Part shown: one piece after another, positions 31,730 through 48,479 of the stretch
Layout of the letters: each line of letters begins with the position of its first letter
Numbering within the stretch: position 1 is the stretch's first letter
NCBI GenBank assembly: GCA_964516805.1
Contig: CAZEXI010000004.1
Location: forward strand, 710 to 64,709
Source of the DNA: an uncultured Thermoplasmata archaeon
GTDB lineage: Archaea > Thermoplasmatota > Thermoplasmata > Halarchaeoplasmatales > Halarchaeoplasmataceae
Direction: 5' to 3'
Length of the DNA: 64,000 nucleotides
The notes under the pieces: model-generated
The model's database searches: none
Told to the model about the DNA's origin: nothing
What the model saw: only the letters and a program-made list of their open reading frames with translations
Position numbers and translations under genes: made by a program

Positions 31730-32485
31730 TTATCCACTCACATTTTGATATGCTTCCCATAATTTTGGAACTGTATCTATCTCTTTAATTTCTTCAGGAG
31801 ACACCCATTTATATTCTACATTTTCCCAGTTCAAATCAACATCGCCTTTTACGTTAAATAAAAATGGATTCACATCCCATATTTTATTTTTATACCTAAC
31901 TCTAACAATCTCCCCCTTTCTTACAAAATCAGTATTTAATCCAGTTTCCTGTTCAATTTCTATCAGGGCTTGATCCATCAAACTCTCAGTTTCAACATAT
32001 CCTGAAACAGCTGACCATTTACCTCGATAACTACCTACATTTTTACCTCTTTTTAGAAGTAATACTTTGCCTTTATTCATCAAGAACGAGGTCACTACTG
32101 GTTGTCTGTGAACGTTTTTTAAATTTATCTTTCCCTCTTCGCCATCTATTTCTACTTTGTCTCCATCTTTAAATAGATCTATCTGAATTTTATCTAACAG
32201 AGGTATATCTGATATTATCGCTCCTGTAGCCACTATCGTTTCAGATCTAGTGTTGATCATGCCTTTGGGAGCAGTTCCATTCTTCTTCAATTGATATATG
32301 ACATATGACCCTACAGTGCTTCCTCTTCCGCCGGGAAATACGAAAATTGAATCCTTTATACTCTTTCTATTAAATACAACACCTGTATTAGGGTCAACAT
32401 CTCCTAAGAATGATACTGGGTTTTCTACTTTCACGACTTCTCCCTCTACATAACCTTTAGAGATACCCCTTCCTTCCAGTATCAT
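31730..32485 (-). CDS. AcnX small subunit (DUF126 swivel domain) fused to a C-terminal Nudix hydrolase domain
   Basis: The N-terminal 125 aa or so carry GEVVKVENPVSFLGDVDPNTG...FPGGRGSTVGSYVIYQLKKNGTAPKGMI (DUF126). The C-terminal half carries a Nudix-box-like GYVETESLMDQALIEIEQETGL. Confidence 0.7.
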   Translation of the reverse strand: MILEGRGISKGYVEGEVVKVENPVSFLGDVDPNTGVVFNRKSIKDSIFVFPGGRGSTVGSYVIYQLKKNGTAPKGMINTRSETIVATGAIISDIPLLDKIQIDLFKDGDKVEIDGEEGKINLKNVHRQPVVTSFLMNKGKVLLLKRGKNVGSYRGKWSAVSGYVETESLMDQALIEIEQETGLNTDFVRKGEIVRVRYKNKIWDVNPFLFNVKGDVDLNWENVEYKWVSPEEIKEIDTVPKLWEAYQNVSG

Positions 32486-33651
32486 GCTATCATCTCCAGC
32501 AGAGTTTTGGTGTCTGCATAGATCACCTTTTGATCTGCCAACTTTGGCAAGTAAGCTGAAGCTTTACCAGAGTTGGTTGCTGCTGTCTCATATTTTTCTT
32601 CTAGAGGACTCACCACCATACATGTATCTGTTATAACTTCACCATATTTTTTAATGGTATTTACCGCCTCAGGAACTTGATTTGCTACATATTTACTGGT
32701 GTATACTAATAGATCCGGACCTTCTTTAGGCTCCTTATCATCCAATATATCAGCTATGTACTCTAACTCATTTGAAGAGAGATGGGGGCAGCCTAGAACG
32801 ATCACATCTGGCTCGGACTCAGTAATCAATCCTTCTTTTACTTCATTTATATCTTCGTCGGTTATAGTTATTCTCTCTAAGGCTTCGGTAGAGAAATCGT
32901 TCCATTCAGGTGTTATATTTTCCACATGATATAGTGCTACTGAACCGGTAGCTGCCATAGCTGCACCTAAAGTTTTCAATTGATCATCCTTATAATCAAC
33001 CCCTCTAAAATATGGTACCCTATCACCTACCATCTCTCCAACTTTATAACCTAGCAAAGCAGCTGGATAATCGTCTTCAACTTCAAAAACTACATCTGGA
33101 CTTCTATTCTCTTTGATATGTAAGCCGTAATAAGGAGTCTTTCCAATTACTGCTGACATCAATGCTGATGGACCACCTTCTCTATTCGTCCTGGCTCCAA
33201 GAACAGAATTCGCATAGGATACTGCTGAACTTTCGCTCCAAGCTAAGTGCTCGTCTTTTTTTGGTTTATTTCCAGCTAGATAAGGCGTGCATGTGCAGGA
33301 AACTTCGATACCCATACTACTGTACGCTTCGATTAACCTTTTCTGTTTTTTTCTAAAATCTTCAGACTCGTAGTGTTTTTTTTCAAGGTCCATTCCTGCT
33401 GGATTCAACATTGACTTTATCTTAACTTTGGCCTTTTTAGAAAAATCTTCGATAAATTCCAGTCCAGCATCACCCATTGTTTTATAAGAGACACCAGCTA
33501 TCTGTGCAGACTTCACGGGTATGAGTCTCTCAGCATCATAAATATCTCCCAAAGCTACTAAGATCTCCATCGCTTTCTGGGGACCTGGTCCTTTACCCCC
33601 CTCTAAAATCCTTTCCTCTTCCTTGGTTAGATTCAAGCTATCACCTTTCAA
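32482..33651 (-). CDS. AcnX large subunit (DUF521 aconitase-X catalytic domain), putative phosphomevalonate dehydratase large subunit
   Basis: 389 aa. LTKEEERILEGGKGPGPQKAMEILV at the N-terminus and the length fit DUF521. ATGA overlap with the small-subunit gene. TTG start in the track. Confidence 0.7.
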   Translation of the reverse strand: MKGDSLNLTKEEERILEGGKGPGPQKAMEILVALGDIYDAERLIPVKSAQIAGVSYKTMGDAGLEFIEDFSKKAKVKIKSMLNPAGMDLEKKHYESEDFRKKQKRLIEAYSSMGIEVSCTCTPYLAGNKPKKDEHLAWSESSAVSYANSVLGARTNREGGPSALMSAVIGKTPYYGLHIKENRSPDVVFEVEDDYPAALLGYKVGEMVGDRVPYFRGVDYKDDQLKTLGAAMAATGSVALYHVENITPEWNDFSTEALERITITDEDINEVKEGLITESEPDVIVLGCPHLSSNELEYIADILDDKEPKEGPDLLVYTSKYVANQVPEAVNTIKKYGEVITDTCMVVSPLEEKYETAATNSGKASAYLPKLADQKVIYADTKTLLEMIA

Positions 33652-33667
33652 ATAAGCAAAAATTTAG

Positions 33668-33740
33668 TGCCGCAGGCCGGACTTGAACCGGCGACATCCA
33701 CCTCTTCAGGGTGGCACTCTCCCAACTGAGTTACTGCGGC
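33668..33740 (-). tRNA. tRNA-Phe (anticodon GAA)
   Basis: Acceptor GCCGCAG/CUGCGGC, anticodon arm CCACC-CUGAAGA-GGUGG, T arm GCCGG-UUCAAGU-CCGGC, discriminator A. No CCA. Confidence 0.9.
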
Positions 33741-33798
33741 TTAATATGCCTCATAATTTCATTAGATTTTAATCTTACGCCTAAAAATAGATTAATAG

Positions 33799-33818
33799 CA
33801 GGGAATCATCGATCCCTG
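33799..33818 (-). terminator. Hairpin (6-bp stem caggga/tccctg, 8-nt loop) followed on the minus strand by a T-rich tract
   Basis: Sits 10 nt downstream of the stop of the 33828..34100 gene, at the end of the four-gene cassette. Confidence 0.35.
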
Positions 33819-33827
33819 TAATGGTTT

Positions 33828-34100
33828 TTAGTTCAATACGTTTCCAAATAAGTTCTCTTTGTTTAGGTTGGCAGCGCTCAACATATCCGAAATAGAGATT
33901 ACATTCATATCTTCACAAAGATCATCAATTTTCTCTTTTTCCATGCCAGCTTTGTTAAGTTCTTTTCTAAGATATTTTTCTCTCTTTTTTACCTTTCTTT
34001 TGTACTTTAGATAGACCAGACCTAGTTTTAATAGTAAAGGAAGGGCAGTGGCGATGATTACTGCCAACATAAATACTGGAGACTGATCTTTCTCTGACAT
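33828..34100 (-). CDS. Small single-pass membrane protein sharing the KEL-x2-AGM-EK motif with the two upstream paralogues
   Basis: 90 aa. TM is VFMLAVIIATALPLLLKLGLVYL, followed by a basic stretch and LRKELNKAGMEKEKIDDL. Confidence 0.55.
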   Translation of the reverse strand: MSEKDQSPVFMLAVIIATALPLLLKLGLVYLKYKRKVKKREKYLRKELNKAGMEKEKIDDLCEDMNVISISDMLSAANLNKENLFGNVLN

Positions 34101-34472
34101 CTACTCCCATTCCTCGTCTTCCATTTTTTTCTTTATCTTTGCTCGAATCTTCTCTTCCATTTCTTCTTTGTCAAAATCTTCATTACTACCACCGCCAAAT
34201 GGTCCACCAGCACCACTGAGAGCTTCTCTTACCAATGATGTCACATCTCTCCCTTTCATGAAATCTCTGGTTAACTGATATGCCTGATCCTTTTCCATAC
34301 CAGCATCTACAAGTTCTTTGTAGAATTTAGCAGTGTTTTTTGCAAGTTCTTGACTATCCTCTGCACTGTATACCGCCTCAACTATACCTGATATCAGTGA
34401 AGGGACAGTGTCGTTCAACGTTTCCATCAATTCTTTCAATTTTTCTATATCTTCTTCATCATCTAATTCCAT
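34101..34472 (-). CDS. Small acidic helical protein, paralogue of 34976..35251
   Basis: 123 aa, roughly 60 percent identical by eye to the 91-aa paralogue over about 75 aa (DIEKLKELM.TLN..VP.LISGI..AVY....S...A.NT.KFYKEL...GM.K.QAY.LTRD......DV.SLVRE.L). A gaggtg SD lies 7 nt upstream. Confidence 0.65.
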   Translation of the reverse strand: MELDDEEDIEKLKELMETLNDTVPSLISGIVEAVYSAEDSQELAKNTAKFYKELVDAGMEKDQAYQLTRDFMKGRDVTSLVREALSGAGGPFGGGSNEDFDKEEMEEKIRAKIKKKMEDEEWE

Positions 34473-34513
34473 TTTTTACACCTCTATTTATTAACATAAT
34501 ATGTATGAACAAA

Positions 34514-34975
34514 CTATTTCTTGATACCGAGCAGTTCTGCCCAATCATCAATAGTACTTTTAGTCAAAGAGTAACCTTTTCCGAAATTTTCATTTTCGTC
34601 CATTATTACTATTCCTTTTTCTTCTAACTTTTTTAACCTATTCCTAACAGTGTGCCTAGAAGCTGATCCTCTTTTCTCTCTCAATCTTTCTGTTATCTGT
34701 GTTATATTCAACGATTTTGCATCCAAAAGTATTTCAACGATGGTTTCTGAAATAGGATCATCTATACCTGGTAAGGCTGAAGGAGAAACTTTACCAAACT
34801 GCTGATAAACTGAAAGCATCCTAAGATACCTTTGCTCTACATCTGTATTAACTGATATTTTTTCAAGAACATTTTTATGCATATTCATGATATTCTCCAT
34901 CATACCCTCCATTGCGGACAACTGCTTCTTTAAAGAGTCGATCTCCTCCTTCAGTTCTTCATTGCTTTCTGACAT
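34514..34975 (-). CDS. Coiled-coil plus winged-helix DNA-binding protein
   Basis: 153 aa. The N-terminus is a coiled coil (EELKEEIDSLKKQLSAMEGMMENIMNM). The C-terminal wHTH is ISETIVEILLDAKSLNITQITERL...TVRNRLKKLEEKGIV. Confidence 0.6.
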   Translation of the reverse strand: MSESNEELKEEIDSLKKQLSAMEGMMENIMNMHKNVLEKISVNTDVEQRYLRMLSVYQQFGKVSPSALPGIDDPISETIVEILLDAKSLNITQITERLREKRGSASRHTVRNRLKKLEEKGIVIMDENENFGKGYSLTKSTIDDWAELLGIKK

Positions 34976-35251
34976 CTATATCAGTACTTCTCTAACTAGA
35001 CTTCCTACGTCTCTATCTCTTAAATAATCTCTTGTCAATACATACGCTTGTTGCTTTTGCATACCCGAATTAGTTAACTCCTTATAGAATTTTGTTGTAT
35101 TTCTAGCTATTTTATCGCTATTTTCTGTATTATACACTGCCTGCATAATACCGGATATCAATTCAGGAACATCATAGTTTAAAGTTCCCATGAGCTCCTT
35201 CAGCTTCTCGATATCATCTTTGTTGTTCATATCCATATTATCGGTTCTCAT
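34976..35251 (-). CDS. Small acidic helical protein, paralogue of 34101..34472
   Basis: 91 aa. Its stop directly abuts the start of the wHTH gene. Confidence 0.65.
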   Translation of the reverse strand: MRTDNMDMNNKDDIEKLKELMGTLNYDVPELISGIMQAVYNTENSDKIARNTTKFYKELTNSGMQKQQAYVLTRDYLRDRDVGSLVREVLI

Positions 35252-35335
35252 ACCATACTATAACGAACAAACTATAACTTGATGTTGAGCACTTCTGCCC
35301 ATCTTCCTACATCATATCAATCAAAACGGTTAAGT

Positions 35336-35719
35336 ATGATTATGGCATTACCATACAATAGTATGAAACCAGACTTTAGTTACGACGAGATAAACTGCAG
35401 TAATGTGATGGAATGCCTGTATAATCTATCTAGCCTTGACAAAAAAATATTATCTTTGCTATCAGATGGAGAAGAACTACGTTCATCTGACATAGCTGAA
35501 AAACTAAATAAAGATCAAAGTACAGCTTATAGATCTCTAGAAAAACTTTTGAATTGCGGTTTGATATATAAGGAAAAACAGACCATCAGAAATGGAGGCT
35601 ATTATTTCCTTTATTCTAGACGGCCTATAAGCAAGATAAAGGAAGAAGCATTTGAATGTATAGATAGATGGTATGAAGATATGAAAGATGCTGTAGAAGA
35701 ACTAGAAGATTTTGAGTAA
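35336..35719 (+). CDS. TrmB/MarR-like winged-helix transcriptional regulator
   Basis: LDKKILSLLSDGEELRSSDIAEKLNKDQSTAYRSLEKLLNCGLIYK. Start moved to the ATG at 35336 to leave room for a divergent promoter; the track starts at TTG 35279. Confidence 0.55.
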   Translation: MIMALPYNSMKPDFSYDEINCSNVMECLYNLSSLDKKILSLLSDGEELRSSDIAEKLNKDQSTAYRSLEKLLNCGLIYKEKQTIRNGGYYFLYSRRPISKIKEEAFECIDRWYEDMKDAVEELEDFE

Positions 35720-35720
35720 A

Positions 35721-36050
35721 CTACAAATCAAAATTATCTTCTATTTTTTCCCTTAGATCACCTTTATCTATGGTACCTCTTATCATCTCTATTACCTCTC
35801 CATCCTTCAAAAACAATAACGTTGGTAATGACTGAATACCATATTTTGAAGGGATACTACCGTTATTCTCTATATTTACCTTTCCAAACCTAACGTGGTT
35901 AGTAAATTCTTCTGCAAGATCTTCTATCACAGGATCAAGCTGTACACATGGACCGCACCAGGTTGCCCAGAAGTCTATAACTATGTTCTTATTTTCGGAA
36001 ACAAATTCATCAAAATTATCTTCTGTAACTTTTAAAGGTTTGTCAGGCAA
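35721..36050 (-). CDS. trxA: Thioredoxin
   Basis: 109 aa. FWATWCGPC active site, SLPTLLF cis-Pro loop. Confidence 0.9.
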   Translation of the reverse strand: MPDKPLKVTEDNFDEFVSENKNIVIDFWATWCGPCVQLDPVIEDLAEEFTNHVRFGKVNIENNGSIPSKYGIQSLPTLLFLKDGEVIEMIRGTIDKGDLREKIEDNFDL

Positions 36051-36169
36051 TGTTTTATCCTCCTTTTATGAGCTTACCTATGTAAATTATATAGACATAT
36101 TTAGGTTTTTCACTTGACATTTAATCAAAAGATTTTAATCTGAAAACTATTTTGGTTCACTTAGATATT

Positions 36170-36436
36170 ATGTCTGAAGATAAAATCAACATAGAATTTG
36201 TATATTCTGATACATGCCCAGATTGTCCACCAGCGAAAAGAATCGTAGAAAATGTTACTGACGATATGGATAATGTAAAAGTAGATTATCTAAGAGCTAA
36301 AGATAGCCCGAACATGATAAAAGAACATGAAATAACACATGTTCCTACGATAATAATAGACGGCGAGGTAGCTTTTATAGAAACACTAACCGAGAATGAT
36401 TTAGAGAAAGAGCTTAAGGATAAGATGGATGAATAG
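36170..36436 (+). CDS. Small glutaredoxin/thioredoxin-like protein (CPDC)
   Basis: FVYSDTCPDCPPAKR ... HVPTIIIDGEV. Start at the ATG at 36170; the track starts at TTG 36152. Confidence 0.65.
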   Translation: MSEDKINIEFVYSDTCPDCPPAKRIVENVTDDMDNVKVDYLRAKDSPNMIKEHEITHVPTIIIDGEVAFIETLTENDLEKELKDKMDE

Positions 36437-37412: not shown

Positions 37413-39269
37413 TCAAGGCACGACACCGATTATTTCATGTTCTCTGCTCATATCAGTATTATGTGATACTATTTTTATCCTTAATTTGACAGTCTCTCCT
37501 GATTTTTCTAATGGCTCATCTGCATACAGAACCATATTTATATTAGATTTAGAGAATTTTCCGACTGTAAAATTCAAGTTTTCTCCTGTTTTGGCATCTA
37601 ATGAATAACTTATACTCCAGCTGCTGTTAGAAATGTTTAATGTAGATATTCCATAACAGTCTAATCTACCTTTATTTTCTAAACTTATGTTAAATCTATA
37701 ATTTGTCCTTTCCTTGTCCATCAAGAAAACATCTTTGATCAACATATCATCGCCAGTCAAAGTTGCATTCATCGAATATCCTAGTTTTGAACTCAATTTT
37801 ATAACTTTTTCCTTATCTGTTGCGTTTGATTTTACTTTAAAACTTATGTCAGTTTGATTAGTACTTTCTTTTACAGACTTTATGGTTAATCTATATGTGA
37901 TGTTATCTTTGACGTCTAAATTCGCGTATGTTTGATTACCTGATACGTTAACATACGTCCAATTATTACCAACTTTCTCCCTATAACTCAATCTAGACTG
38001 CCATGACTCATTTGATAATTTATAGCTTACATTGTAAATGATACCTTGGTCTTCTTCTATATTCTTACCCTTATTTTTAAGATTAATATAATAATCGGTA
38101 GTTTCATTAACTAAAACTGTACGATCAGGTACGCCTTCTAACTGCATCTGAAAATCATAACTGTACTGCTGCTGCTCAACAGGGATCGGATGAAAACTCA
38201 CGATGAGTATTACCACGCCGATCACTCCTACAATCTTTCTTTTATTGTCTAGTTTACTGATATCGTTAAGAGGGGGAGGATGTTTTACGCCTCCTAAGAA
38301 AAGTATCAGTACAGCAAATAAAATCCAACCTGGATACCTCCATATACCAACTATCATCAAGAATCCAAATGCTGCATAGCTGATGAATTTTGAATTATCA
38401 CCTAATAAAGAGCGGATAACGTGTCCACCATCCAATTGGGATGCAGGTAAAAGATTTAAACCAGTAACTAAGAAGCCTACCCATCCTGCAAATAAAGTGG
38501 GATGTAGATTAGTTGTAACATTCCAAGGAAGTAAAGCTGCTAACCCTTGTATTATTATCGGATTACTCCAGAGGAAACGTACTCCTTGACCTGAAACTGG
38601 AGGAGATGGATTTCCTGTTGCCCCTAAATATAAACCGATTATAGATACAGGTATCGCTACTATAAAACCACAGATAGGCCCTGCTATACCCACATCTAAT
38701 AATGATTTTTTGTCAGGAATCGGTTCTCTTATGCTGATAAAAGCACCAATAGTTCCTAACGGTGGAGGAGCTGGCATAAAGAATGGAAGTGAAGCTTTTA
38801 TCTTATGTAATCTAGCCATAAAATAATGTCCCATCTCATGTATTCCTAAAATAGTCAATAAAGGTAACGTGAAATAAAATCCACCATAGAGTAAGTTGTG
38901 AAGAGAAAACATACCATTAACAGGATCATACGTACCCCATTGATAAGTACCTGCAATAAGTGCAGTACCTATAGTTATAAAGAGCATGATAAGATTAGTT
39001 TTTACTCCCCTATAGCTCTTCTCTTCTTGTTTTTTATACTTGATTATATATTCACCTGAGTCCTCAGACAAAAATGGTATGTAATTCTGAGGCACTAATT
39101 CCTTCCTTAAAGAATCAAATCTATCTTCTATGTCCTCTCCATCAAAAACTCTAACATAAACAGAAACTATATTATATTCAACTTCAGTTTTATAAACAGG
39201 AAAATGTTTACCTGTTACATTTTGAAGAAATTCTATTTCATTTTTATAATCTTCAGGACTATCTACCAT
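37413..39269 (-). CDS. Site-2 protease family (M50) membrane metalloprotease with large sequon-rich C-terminal extracytoplasmic domain
   Basis: HEMGHYFMA (HExxH) and LPASQLDGGHV motifs in a multi-TM core. The C-terminal 250 aa or so are beta-rich. Confidence 0.8.
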   Translation of the reverse strand: MVDSPEDYKNEIEFLQNVTGKHFPVYKTEVEYNIVSVYVRVFDGEDIEDRFDSLRKELVPQNYIPFLSEDSGEYIIKYKKQEEKSYRGVKTNLIMLFITIGTALIAGTYQWGTYDPVNGMFSLHNLLYGGFYFTLPLLTILGIHEMGHYFMARLHKIKASLPFFMPAPPPLGTIGAFISIREPIPDKKSLLDVGIAGPICGFIVAIPVSIIGLYLGATGNPSPPVSGQGVRFLWSNPIIIQGLAALLPWNVTTNLHPTLFAGWVGFLVTGLNLLPASQLDGGHVIRSLLGDNSKFISYAAFGFLMIVGIWRYPGWILFAVLILFLGGVKHPPPLNDISKLDNKRKIVGVIGVVILIVSFHPIPVEQQQYSYDFQMQLEGVPDRTVLVNETTDYYINLKNKGKNIEEDQGIIYNVSYKLSNESWQSRLSYREKVGNNWTYVNVSGNQTYANLDVKDNITYRLTIKSVKESTNQTDISFKVKSNATDKEKVIKLSSKLGYSMNATLTGDDMLIKDVFLMDKERTNYRFNISLENKGRLDCYGISTLNISNSSWSISYSLDAKTGENLNFTVGKFSKSNINMVLYADEPLEKSGETVKLRIKIVSHNTDMSREHEIIGVVP

Positions 39270-45617: not shown

Positions 45618-48479
45618 TTATTCGACATATATTGCTGGTTTTCTAGGCATGGCATGTTTGCTCTTGTTTACTGGGTCATATATGTTTTTTTCTCCAGCTT
45701 TGTATATTCTTATGGTTGTATCAAACTGTGATTCTAGGAATTTCTTGTTATTTTCCAACGTTTCATATTCATCAAACGAAATGCTCCATGTTTTTTTCTG
45801 CCCTTTTTCTCTGATTTCCTGAAGTACGTCCTGAACGAAGGACGAAAGTTGATTGGAAGGCGCATCTATCTTCTGTACTAATTCTCCCATTATTCCCATA
45901 CCTTTATCAGGATTATCGATGATCTCCTTCAAAGCCTCTTCTTTCCAGGATCCCGCTACATACAGGTGTATCTCTTCTCCTTTAACATCTGCTATATCCA
46001 ATATCTGTTTTATATCATCACTGACGTCTTTTAGATATTCCTCTTTAGCTTCTGCTATTTCTGATATTAAATCTTCATTTACTTCCGGTAAACTTTGTTC
46101 CGTCACAAACTCAGTATCGAATTTACTGCTCAACTCTTCCGCGATATGTGGTGTGAAGGGAGCAATCATTTTTACCCATTTCTTCCCTATTCGTTTCAAA
46201 AGTGCTCCGTTCACGCCTCCTCTATTAAAGTACCATTCTATTTCAGAAGGAATATCGTAAAACACAACATTAGCTCCTTTCCTTATCTCCTGATCTTCCA
46301 TTATATCGTAATATTCTCTCATGAGAACGTTGAATCTAGATTCCAAGTATTCATCAACAGATGATTCTTCTCCTTCAGTGTCGAACATCTTATTGACCAG
46401 ATCCCATATACTTCTGAGTTTTTTTCTGTAATTGAACGCTTCTTTCTCACTCCAATCCTTATCAACAAAAGGACTAGATGAATGAGCGTAGAACAAACGC
46501 AGGGTATCTACTCCGTACTTCTCAGCAGCATCCTGGATAGGTTCAGCTCCACCTTTTGATTTAGATATCTTTCCGCCTTTACCTACTAACCACCAATTGA
46601 CAAAAATTCCTTGAGGCCAGTTTTCTTCATTTAGTATACCAACATGATTCATTAGGAACACAGGGAAGTGTACCGTCATGTGTTCTTTACCACCCAGGTT
46701 CAGATCGAGTGGATACCAGTACTCGAAATCTTTTCTAGCTTTCTCTATCTTATCTTTTTCTAAACCAGTCTTTTTAGATACCTTTTCAACATCTCCTCTT
46801 CCAAGATAAACGTAATCAAAGAATTCTTCTGTCATCTGTTCTGCTTTTATTTTACCTTCATTATAGTGCTTAGCAAGGATATAATATGCTGGATACAAGG
46901 TTGAATCCGCTATAGCCTCGATCACCCATTTTTCATCGAACGGAAATTCTGTACCCATCCAATTACCCATCCTAGCACAGGAACGATCCTGAAACCATTC
47001 TATAGTATCTGGGAGGTTGTCTGCATAACTCTGAGGTTTTATGTTCATATTTTCAGCATGTCTTTTACTTTCTTTTGTCAATTCATCATCAGAGTACTGG
47101 ATGAACCATTGATCCGGAATCTTTCCAACTACTACTTTCCCACCACATCTGCATATCACTTCTTCAGAAAGATCGTACATGATGTCCGCTTCACCAGATT
47201 CGATCATATCATCCTTGACCATATCCTTAGCTTCCTGTACTCTCATCCCCTCATACTCTTCACATGAACCCAGCATAGTTCCTGTGTGAAATCCAGCTTT
47301 GTAAATCTTCTGGGTAGCCTCTTCCAGTTTTTCTTCTTCCTCCTGACTCCCTATTTCCATCTCATCTATGATCTTCTCTGCAGGATTTCTACCCCATTCA
47401 TCAGAATCTATGATAGCTATCGGTTCTACATCTTTTATCTTTTCTTTTAAATCAAACGTTTCCAATAACTCGTCATCTTCCTTGATATCCTTCAAGGCTA
47501 TCCAATCATAAGGAGCATCACTTGGTACGCTTGTTACGATACCCGTTCCAACGTCTGGATCTGTGAAAGTAGCTGGTAAAATTATGATGTCACGATGTAT
47601 GGCAGGTGCGGTTGCATAATCACCTATCATCTCCTCTCCCCTGATCGTATCAACGACTTCGATATCGTCTTTTTGATAACTCAATTTATCAGCAGCTTCT
47701 TCACTCAGTATCCACTCTTCGTCATCGATCTTAGCGATTACGTATTCTTCCTCAGGATCGACCCATAGATTCGTTTGTCCAAACACAGTTTCAGGTCTCA
47801 GTGTTGCCGCTGTTATGTATCTATCTCCATACTCGAACTTGAGAAGCGTGTATTCATGCTTTTCAGCATTACCACCTTTTTGAAGATCAGTTTCAGAGGG
47901 ATCGACAGCCACAGGACCACATTCAACACATTCGGTTCCGAAATATGGTTTCTGAGTGAGTAAATCATTCTCCTTTAATTTCTTGAACTGCCATTTTATG
48001 AACTGTTTGTAATCATCTCTAATAGTATATGTGAAATAATCAAAATCTATACTTATACCAAATTTCTTCCAATATTTTTCTTTATAGACTTCGTTGAAGT
48101 AATCGACCAACTCCATGGGATCCTTTAATCTCTCTATCTCTTCTTCAGTAGCACCGTTCCTTTTCATGTAGTCGATCTTATCTTGATTTCCATCTTCTAT
48201 TTGTTTTGCTAAACTTATAGCTTGATTTCCAGTAGGATGTGTTCCTGCAGGGAATAGTACATTGTAACCTTCCATCTTCTTGTATCTAGCAATTATATCT
48301 GTATAACTATAACATCTCATATGACCTAGATGAAGAAAACCTGAGATTCCCGGATATGCGAATATCAGATAAAACGGCTCTTTGGATTCATCTACTTCGG
48401 TTTTATAGACACCATTCTCCTGCCATCTCTGCTGCCACTTTTCTTCGATCTCCACGGGGTCGTACTCGCTCATACTCAA
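45618..48479 (-). CDS. leuS: Leucine--tRNA ligase, archaeal type
   Basis: 953 aa. HLGH and KISKSKG class I motifs, an editing-domain insertion and an archaeal-type C-terminal extension. Confidence 0.9.
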   Translation of the reverse strand: MSMSEYDPVEIEEKWQQRWQENGVYKTEVDESKEPFYLIFAYPGISGFLHLGHMRCYSYTDIIARYKKMEGYNVLFPAGTHPTGNQAISLAKQIEDGNQDKIDYMKRNGATEEEIERLKDPMELVDYFNEVYKEKYWKKFGISIDFDYFTYTIRDDYKQFIKWQFKKLKENDLLTQKPYFGTECVECGPVAVDPSETDLQKGGNAEKHEYTLLKFEYGDRYITAATLRPETVFGQTNLWVDPEEEYVIAKIDDEEWILSEEAADKLSYQKDDIEVVDTIRGEEMIGDYATAPAIHRDIIILPATFTDPDVGTGIVTSVPSDAPYDWIALKDIKEDDELLETFDLKEKIKDVEPIAIIDSDEWGRNPAEKIIDEMEIGSQEEEEKLEEATQKIYKAGFHTGTMLGSCEEYEGMRVQEAKDMVKDDMIESGEADIMYDLSEEVICRCGGKVVVGKIPDQWFIQYSDDELTKESKRHAENMNIKPQSYADNLPDTIEWFQDRSCARMGNWMGTEFPFDEKWVIEAIADSTLYPAYYILAKHYNEGKIKAEQMTEEFFDYVYLGRGDVEKVSKKTGLEKDKIEKARKDFEYWYPLDLNLGGKEHMTVHFPVFLMNHVGILNEENWPQGIFVNWWLVGKGGKISKSKGGAEPIQDAAEKYGVDTLRLFYAHSSSPFVDKDWSEKEAFNYRKKLRSIWDLVNKMFDTEGEESSVDEYLESRFNVLMREYYDIMEDQEIRKGANVVFYDIPSEIEWYFNRGGVNGALLKRIGKKWVKMIAPFTPHIAEELSSKFDTEFVTEQSLPEVNEDLISEIAEAKEEYLKDVSDDIKQILDIADVKGEEIHLYVAGSWKEEALKEIIDNPDKGMGIMGELVQKIDAPSNQLSSFVQDVLQEIREKGQKKTWSISFDEYETLENNKKFLESQFDTTIRIYKAGEKNIYDPVNKSKHAMPRKPAIYVE

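Follow-up and report, generated by a model that had tools for sequence, protein, structure and literature searches.

A conserved gene pair encoding a small acidic protein and its membrane-anchored relative, linked to transcription regulators in archaea and bacteria

The stretch of DNA analysed here (the window) is 64,000 nucleotides of contig CAZEXI010000004.1 from an uncultured Thermoplasmata archaeon, and carries on its minus strand four closely packed open reading frames (ORFs) separated by spacers of 0, 41 and 0 nt, as the original prediction had described. In the order of transcription they encode a 91-residue protein (A1, 34976-35251), a 153-residue protein with a coiled coil and a winged helix-turn-helix domain (CC-wHTH, 34514-34975), a 123-residue relative of the first protein (A2, 34101-34472) and a 90-residue membrane protein (TM, 33828-34100). 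Comparison with related DNA suggests that the core of this group, an A gene followed by a TM gene, is ancient, is older than the four-gene cassette and occurs in both domains. Our favoured reading, to which we give a probability of roughly 0.4, is that the cassette is a local elaboration of this unnamed A-TM pair, and that the pair is an inducible, membrane-associated output controlled by a dedicated regulator, with which it probably forms a membrane-stress circuit. We favour a regulated membrane output because the pair stays constant while its regulator changes and has a promoter-like region of its own, and because its proteins have opposite charges, a membrane anchor, a common hairpin and neighbours of an envelope type.

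A scan of one genome per species gave 48 loci (loci, numbered L001 and so on, and proteins, numbered P0108 and so on, are the relatives' DNA and proteins that were compared with the window). The order wHTH-A-TM recurs in about 40 Thermoplasmata genomes, often with a divergent TrmB-like gene and a thioredoxin gene, which bears out the claim of a conserved unit that includes a DNA-binding partner. A Natronoplasma-like clade (L001, L006, L034, L042, L043 and L047) has the order A-TM-wHTH, followed by genes for an ATP-binding cassette (ABC) ATPase and an ABC-2 permease. The locus is stable, with the same neighbours in many species, and its inheritance is apparently vertical. What is conserved, however, is a unit of three genes (wHTH, A and TM) rather than the four-gene cassette first proposed: A1 is found, besides the window, only in the two closest relatives (L008 and L009), and as the 91-residue gene is a recent accessory duplicate, the four-gene arrangement is specific to this lineage.

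Two observations on these loci may be added. In the clade with A in first position, the ABC ATPase has 323-332 residues and the ABC-2-type permease 254, some loci also encode an acidic protein of 77 residues, and a decayed remnant of the 3' end of an older wHTH gene persists upstream of A. One locus labelled Candidatus Aenigmatarchaeota (L041, JBKHKA010000009.1) has a typical Natronoplasma-like wHTH-A-TM arrangement with an A protein 80% identical to a reference, and its label may stem from an error in the binning or labelling of the metagenome-assembled genome (MAG).

The core order, A then TM, is seen at 55 of 57 non-duplicate loci, from at least three archaeal and several bacterial lineages. 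A TM ORF follows 51 of 60 distinct A genes according to hidden Markov model (HMM) matches, and inspection adds four; the other five comprise three A1 duplicates, one gene at a contig end and one fusion protein. The two genes usually overlap or have a 0-nt spacer. Distant relatives of A, 29-42% identical, come from two MAGs labelled Methanobacteriota, from Bathyarchaeota, from an Armatimonadia MAG, from Clostridia MAGs and from Paenibacillus thermotolerans, and in every one of these groups a TM-family gene follows A. P. thermotolerans is the only cultured carrier seen, all other family members checked by cluster being from MAGs.

A1 and A2 share 53 of 85 aligned residues (62%, BLASTP E=6e-40) and are therefore paralogues, as had been predicted. 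A2, one of the core members of the A family, is an all-helical protein, soluble and acidic, with a conserved core of about 85 residues, a Gly-rich linker (residues 87-101 or so) and a C-terminal amphipathic helix ending in EEWE; A1 has neither the linker nor this last helix. An AlphaFold2 (AF2) model of A2 computed from a diverse alignment (mean predicted local distance difference test, pLDDT, of 74; predicted template modelling score, pTM, of 0.37) has helices at residues 5-35, 40-56, 61-75, 77-87 and 102-122, with the hairpin at 40-75 above 90 pLDDT and a disordered linker at about 88-101; a first run with a shallow alignment, at a pLDDT of 51.6, was set aside. The paralogues had been described as unassignable to any family, and Pfam, NCBIfam, a PDB sequence search and Foldseek are all negative. 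Nothing in Pfam or NCBIfam matches A or TM, bacterial members included, PDB profile searches match only de novo designed helical repeats, and when 106 diverse A members were scanned singly the commonest Pfam family appeared in 5 of the 106, all of these matches being generic helical noise.

The A family is large for one without a name. Close homologues of A2 (n=50) are all annotated as hypothetical and come from hypersaline Thermoplasmatota (Ca. Saliniplasma, Natronoplasma and relatives). An exhaustive profile search gives 325 representatives at 50% identity, of which 65 reach E<=1e-10, and a word-indexed search with the bacterial sub-alignment gives 1,720 clusters at 90% identity. No Pfam domain is found among the 120 A clusters listed; those with a source name are called 'hypothetical protein', but for P0350, which has one, evidently spurious, JGI label. 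Four bacterial proteins (P0108, P0121, P0123 and P0153) are fusions in which the A core stands behind a very long Glu/Arg-rich coiled coil; P0153 (L056:4001-5167) comes after an ECF (extracytoplasmic function) sigma/zf-HC2 pair and has no TM gene downstream. A 'Rosetta stone' argument from these fusions was rejected, the extra N-terminal hairpin-like repeats scoring 6-10 bits and not being of TM type.

TM is a basic protein with a single hydrophobic segment near its N-terminus, the predicted anchor (Kyte-Doolittle 19-residue mean, KD19, of 2.35; the usual threshold is 1.6), followed by the polybasic sequence KYKRKVKKREK; 44 of 51 members of the family are at or above 1.6, and a motif LPxL-h-K is conserved in the middle of the anchor helix. 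Net charge averages +9.4 in the TM family and -11.4 in the A family. The cytoplasmic part of TM, a bihelical hairpin, is homologous to the C-terminal half of the A core. TM and A2 compared as a single pair give a weak match (10/20 identical, E=0.014), and the family profiles, built from the related loci, align with a probability of 91% in hhalign (E=1.1e-6 over 38 columns, A 48-86 with TM 44-81). The real score is 40.1, while the reversed TM profile and 30 column-shuffled ones score at most 13.9, and the A and TM family HMMs weakly match each other's members. That the membrane protein shares a motif with the paralogues was thus correctly noticed, and the profile comparisons show that this is homology. 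We do not claim paralogy over the full length of the two proteins: a global alignment of the two profiles is collinear, with the conserved Pro of A (VPxLI) opposite that of the TM helix (LPxLI), yet adds no score beyond the hairpin, so that full-length paralogy is suggestive only.

All A genes examined from hypersaline Thermoplasmata loci, except the decayed L009 copy, are preceded by a block of about 70 nt with an imperfect palindrome (GGGCA-N4-TGCTC) and a TATA-like box. In aligned upstream DNA the 14-mer GGGCAGAA(N)TGCTC is found some 50-70 nt before the start codon of A, and the consensus of the block reads TGG GCA RAA NTG CTC GGT ATH AAR AWA TAG - TTTGnnCACCCTTATA - n6 - AGGTG - n5-7 - ATG, with the TATA-like AAGAWATAG overlapping the wHTH stop codon. 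The palindrome 14-mer occurs twice in the window, against 0.04 expected, and also in 27 of the loci compared. In the cis-region of A2 (34473-34543, minus strand), the palindrome GGGCAGAACTGCTC (34529-34542) is formed by the W-A-E-L-L codons of CC-wHTH, the TATA-like AAGAAATAG (34514-34522) overlaps the stop codon of that gene, and a Shine-Dalgarno-like GAGGTG lies at 34479-34484. A non-coding copy upstream of A1 (35252-35301, minus strand) has the palindrome GGGCAGAAGTGCTC (35287-35300) and the TATA-like AAGTTATAG (35272-35280).

The constraint on this block acts on the nucleotides and is tied to their position upstream of A, because the block is retained as non-coding DNA, its synonymous codons are frozen, the constraint is lost when the gene moves, and changes in the palindrome are compensatory. 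Non-coding retention is seen where no wHTH gene precedes, namely at A1 of the window and of L008, at L018, L025, L036 and L039, and throughout the A-first clade, where the block is a remnant (…WAEVLGKNK*) whose reading frame is intact; in L034 and L042 stop codons lie just before it. Among 29 unique wHTH genes directly upstream of A, the Ala codon is GCA in 29/29 (background 0.21) and the second Leu codon CTC in 29/29 (background 0.19), while Glu is encoded by GAA in 18/18 (background 0.52); at other positions of the gene, the commonest codon appears in just 48-64% of sequences. Where the wHTH gene has moved 3' of TM, the same residues use GCG, GAG, CTT and CTG. Perfect palindromes arise by differing changes in two non-coding copies, GGGCA/TGCCC in L018 and GAGCA/TGCTC in L036. 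The block remains recognisable in the distant L059.

The blocks upstream of A1 and A2 align with each other (GGGCAGAAsTGCTC..ATCAAG.wATAGTTTGTTC), and as the DNA upstream of A1 thereby aligns with the wHTH 3' end plus spacer, A1 arose by duplication of a segment comprising the wHTH 3' end, the spacer and A, which put a copy of the block ahead of A1 and CC-wHTH. A1 itself is a recent, faster-evolving and tail-less duplicate: between the window and L008 it is 62% identical with a dN/dS of 0.19, against 87% and 0.08 for A2. The L009 orthologue is truncated to 75 residues, and before it (at about 6150-6240 of L009) a perfect 13-bp inverted repeat (GTCAAAGACGTAA...TTACGTCTTTGAC) replaces the cis-block, which suggests an insertion or rearrangement removing the duplicate.

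Two further features of the region were considered and set aside. A possible anti-Shine-Dalgarno hairpin (CACC...GGTG), spotted by eye, does not occur in all loci, and the window lacks it. A palindrome with one mismatch (GAGCAAACATGCCA) lies at 45650-45663 of the window, in the 3' end of a 953-residue ORF and 70 nt before the next gene; its geometry is like that of the module, yet such a match is within chance expectation for the relaxed pattern by our own estimate, and the idea of a wider regulon was dropped.

The regulator beside the pair differs between lineages. A CC-wHTH gene is within 1.5 kb of 44 of the 60 A genes, in Thermoplasmata, in L049 (labelled Methanobacteriota), in Bathyarchaeota (L053 and L055) and in the metagenomic L059. 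Six independent bacterial lineages (L051, L052, L054, L056, L061/62 and L064/65) have the order ECF sigma factor, anti-sigma factor, A, TM, with overlapping genes. The sigma factors have Sigma70_r2 and r4_2 domains in 6/6 cases and are 25-40% identical to one another; the anti-sigma factors are short (104-146 residues), have no large extracytoplasmic sensor, and in 4/6 cases are of the zf-HC2 type with H-x3-C-x2-C. In their position, directly 3' of ECF sigma and anti-sigma genes, the bacterial members in these lineages agree with ECF sigma-accessory genes of the YxlD-like (co-anti-sigma) kind, a comparison that does not apply to the window itself, whose organism is archaeal and has no sigma factor. 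The 'anti-sigma-like logic' of the original prediction is unexpectedly supported by the genomic context in these six lineages. In L063 the end of the upstream gene looks, by eye, like the C-terminus of a sigma-54 activator with a Fis-type HTH, and in Armatimonadota loci the pair is followed by a trypsin-like protease and has no adjacent regulator. The A-TM pair goes with at least two, perhaps three, unrelated classes of regulator. An envelope theme runs through its neighbours, which include ECF sigma factors, the ABC-2 transporter of one clade and, in a different clade, a secreted, trypsin-like protease. Zinc anti-sigma factors of the ZAS type sense the redox state in some systems; with such anti-sigma factors at 4/6 bacterial loci and thioredoxins near the TrmB-like gene, there may be a redox link.

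The archaeal regulator has the architecture first described for it, an N-terminal heptad coiled coil (about residues 8-40) and a C-terminal winged helix. Hydrophobic residues spaced by 3-4 can be read from the sequence of its first ~35 residues, where there is also a weak prefoldin coiled-coil match, and the winged helix (residues ~77-135) matches Penicillinase_R (23.0 bits) and HTH_11 (22.4 bits). The names given to it by NCBI are BlaI/MecI/CopY or wHTH, of which the first rests on a marginal and partial match: the Penicillinase_R score exceeds the cut-off of 22.6 by little, covers only positions 6-56 of the 115 in the profile, and falls to 14.1 bits in a distant orthologue. HTH_5 scores 15.4 bits, below its cut-off of 22. 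The closest solved structure is PagR, of the ArsR type (E=6.5e-4, wHTH part only). The C-terminus, WAELLGIKK, is conserved; besides its winged helix the protein has the coiled coil and no ligand-binding domain.

In two sediment metatranscriptome runs there are contigs nearly identical to the DNA of the locus. Individual RNA contigs bridge the junctions of TM with A2 (33926-34259) and of wHTH with A1 (34804-35041 and 34949-35099), and another (35133-35283) reaches from A1 to a point 32 nt before its start codon; the library was primed with oligo-dT, depth is 2-3x, and no contig covers 34283-34456 or the 41-nt spacer. Transcription in situ is thus shown, and each pair with a zero spacer is co-transcribed. 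Of a single transcript for all four genes, the contigs bridge both zero-spacer junctions and leave the 41-nt spacer unbridged. More generally, the paralogues fall in no characterised family, the gene order is kept in about 40 species-level genomes and RNA spans junctions between genes, all in line with what had been expected of a module.

The circuit that we propose would work as follows. TM and A would join via the shared hairpin to form a membrane-tethered hetero-oligomer, in which the flexible linker and C-terminal amphipathic helix of A would be held at the inner face of the membrane. The pair would be the output that a circuit for membrane or envelope stress induces, with the regulator encoded alongside: a dedicated coiled-coil wHTH protein in archaea, an ECF sigma factor with its short anti-sigma factor in bacteria. 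In the window, a CC-wHTH dimer would act on the palindrome and TATA-like box in the last codons of its own gene, driving A2-TM, and the A1 duplication, having carried a copy of the promoter region ahead of A1-wHTH, would have made the regulator subject to this control as well. That A-TM feeds back on its regulator, in the style of Psp or of anti-sigma systems, is plausible and would be secondary.

Several points weigh against this reading. Binding between A and TM, binding of CC-wHTH to the palindrome, induction by stress and a function at the membrane are all inferred. The palindrome is imperfect in its usual form, weaker in L059, and could act as RNA. It is absent upstream of the wHTH gene itself in 25 wHTH-first loci, so autoregulation through it is not general. 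Where present, the divergent TrmB-like protein could be the binder of the element. None of the proteins has a stress-related domain, and Foldseek found no fold match in PDB for the AF2 model of A2 (pTM 0.37), the best E being ~1. RNA coverage is thin, with the 41-nt spacer and the 5' half of A2 uncovered.

The main rival, which we rate as rather doubtful, is sequestration: A-TM would be chiefly a regulator and no output, TM would hold A, and A or TM would bind the coiled coil of the wHTH protein, or the anti-sigma or sigma factor, keeping the regulator inactive until a membrane signal arrives, in the manner of YxlC/YxlD-SigY, CnrY/CnrX-CnrH and the predicted HAAS-PadR dyad. It draws support from the architecture of the regulators, the archaeal one having a coiled coil and no ligand-binding domain, and the bacterial anti-sigma factors being short and without a large extracytoplasmic sensor, so that an extra sensing component is needed. 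The genes are also co-directional and overlapping, like known operons of sigma factors, anti-sigma factors and co-regulators, and there are precedents in the ECF31 sigma factor SigY, whose regulation requires YxlD (+2) besides YxlC (+1) (PMC7826278), and in the HAAS-PadR concept (PMC11237479). However, a single kind of pair would need to bind partners as unrelated as zf-HC2 anti-sigma factors, CC-wHTH and the apparent sigma-54-type activator in L063, the Armatimonadota pairs have no adjacent regulator, and the Pfam and NCBIfam scans link neither protein in sequence to YxlD, HAAS, PadR or an anti-sigma domain. The pair also has a strongly conserved promoter-like region of its own, which marks it as a regulated target. 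The membrane-to-DNA signalling module of the original prediction is weakened to this extent, since several regulator classes and a promoter-like region fit a regulated output at least equally well. The two are not exclusive, PspA being both effector and regulator. An unlikely extension is that A-TM is an ancient, self-contained sensor of membrane state that plugs into the machinery of its host, the ECF sigma/anti-sigma pair in bacteria and the coiled-coil wHTH protein in archaea, in which the operator in the codons for the wHTH C-terminus and the protein that they encode would constrain each other.

Also unlikely, in our view, is that the cis-element works as RNA, with a short hairpin (GGGCA/UGCUC, its loop of the GNNN type) in a polycistronic mRNA of wHTH, A and TM governing its processing, the stability of the A-TM part or translational coupling, and no internal promoter. 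This hairpin is the sole consensus structure that RNAalifold finds in the region, a G-U pair in it has become G-C in one sequence and A-U in a second, farther 3' there is a conserved AGGTG resembling a Shine-Dalgarno sequence, and the spacer between wHTH and A is short (25-45 nt), as expected within one transcript. Yet the hairpin has only 5-6 pairs, which are nearly invariant and lack two-sided covariation, so that covariation cannot decide between a DNA operator and an RNA hairpin, and one clade breaks a pair (C-A in L006/L047). Moreover, the block is kept where no upstream gene supplies a transcript, A-first loci have an A/T-rich TATA-like box at promoter distance from it, and L059 preserves the flanks better than the pairing. 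A toxin-antitoxin or holin-antiholin-like system, in which basic TM would damage the membrane, acidic A neutralise it and the wHTH protein act as repressor, is very improbable: the small, translationally coupled acidic/basic pair, the DNA-binding protein in the same unit and a PIN/RHH (ribbon-helix-helix) pair adjoining one distant locus would suit it, but the locus is stable and apparently vertically inherited, all its parts are under strong purifying selection, no second copy of the whole module occurs in the contigs examined, linkage to ECF sigma factors is atypical of such systems, and PADLOC and PHROG, which lend no support to defence or phage readings either, match none of A1, A2 and TM and only the generic wHTH of the 153-residue protein.

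The closest known systems seem to resemble the module in logic and not in sequence. The bacterial A-TM genes, which overlap and take positions +2/+3 behind the genes for an ECF sigma factor and its short anti-sigma factor, recall the sigY-yxlCDEFG operon (ECF31), in which Bacillus subtilis YxlF and YxlG are an ABC ATPase and an ABC-2 permease, as are the products encoded after the A-first archaeal modules. NCBIfam, however, has no match for A or TM, the linked sigma factor scores 66.9 bits against a SigY cut-off of 194, and the archaeon of the window, lacking a sigma factor, has a coiled-coil wHTH protein in its place. The HAAS-PadR dyad and the SHOCT-like bihelical domains, predicted to be membrane-proximal signalling parts of PSP-related systems in archaea and bacteria (PMC11237479), share with the module a small helical membrane-linked protein, a stand-alone wHTH protein, a bihelical unit under the membrane, presence in both domains and frequent linkage to sigma factors and ABC transporters (PMC11237479). 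DUF1700, DUF1129, DUF1048, SHOCT and DUF1707 are not found at E<=1 in A1, A2, TM or the 106 A members, and PadR is not among the 35 weak wHTH matches listed for CC-wHTH, which is nearest to the ArsR-type PagR and is not PadR-like.

Psp and Lia systems (PspA-PspB/C and LiaH-LiaI) likewise combine a soluble helical protein with a small anchor, a regulator that varies with the lineage and possible feedback. In the A members nothing above noise is seen for PspA/Snf7, PspB, PspC or LiaI/LiaF (2/106 at E ~0.07), no genes for PspA, PspC, LiaF or Toastrack proteins lie near the module, and A, with some 85-120 residues, is a paralogue of its own anchor, unlike anything in Psp or Lia. The BlaI/MecI/CopY systems, to which the wHTH match points, also place a repressor under a membrane partner. 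The order of domains is reversed in CC-wHTH, whose coiled coil is N-terminal and whose wHTH is C-terminal, and no BlaR1/MecR1 (M56-type) sensor protease is encoded in the flanks within the window or at related loci. Both families are new to curated databases, with no Pfam or NCBIfam model and no structure, and are best filed as a regulator-linked small membrane-protein module.

The two families span Thermoplasmatota, Bathyarchaeia, other archaea, Bacillota, Clostridia, Acidobacteriota and Armatimonadota, nearly always beside a transcription regulator. In bacteria they form a conserved and undescribed extension of a set of ECF sigma/anti-sigma operons in which the anti-sigma factor is sensor-less. 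In archaea, where stress regulators are little understood, the pair offers a regulator, a probable target and a candidate operator in one package. The cis-element over the last codons of the regulator is a clean, natural case of dual coding with its own internal control, as the constraint is gone when the gene moves. Were the pair indeed a sensor, it would be an accessory signalling module common to both domains and earlier unrecognised.

Downstream of TM (33783-33819, minus strand), a hairpin of 7 base pairs (33798-33819) is followed by a run of five T (33783-33787) on the coding strand, with a tRNA-Phe gene beyond (33667-33740). The hairpin and T-tract, which had been described as closing the unit, likely do mark its 3' end; the hairpin exists, but the T run begins 12 nt past the stem, so that this is no textbook intrinsic terminator. 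In one DNA run (X1) the tRNA-Phe region (33672-33742) has contig depths of 76-146 against ~9, with variant contigs present, probably because near-identical tRNA genes of other community members collapse there.

Upstream of A1, the divergent plus-strand gene (35363-35719) is a TrmB-like regulator as predicted, of TrmB/ArsR/Lrs14-Sta1 type, with matches to TrmB (39.5 bits), HTH_5 (41.9 bits) and Sta1 (65.7 bits); its start is likely at 35363, rather than 35279. It is a neighbour in many wHTH-first loci, and is probably not part of the core because it is absent from the A-first and distant loci. A thioredoxin (109 residues, 102 bits) and a glutaredoxin/thioredoxin-like protein (94 residues), both encoded within 35721-36436, flank it, and the order thioredoxin, TrmB-like gene, wHTH-A-TM is also seen in at least one of the relatives studied closely (L004).

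Further away, 2 kb from the module, a minus-strand gene (37413-39269) encodes a 618-residue M50 site-2 protease (Peptidase_M50, 71.6 bits, residues 132-292) with a long C-terminal extension rich in N-x-S/T motifs; it was considered as a partner that might cleave the Pro-containing TM helix, and was rejected, not being syntenic in relatives. On the other side (31730-33651, minus strand), the gene for the large subunit of an aconitase X (389 residues, AcnX, 488 bits) overlaps the next ORF by 4 nt; this ORF encodes a 251-residue protein that joins the AcnX swivel domain to a NUDIX domain at its C-terminus, a fusion that looks unusual for the small subunit.

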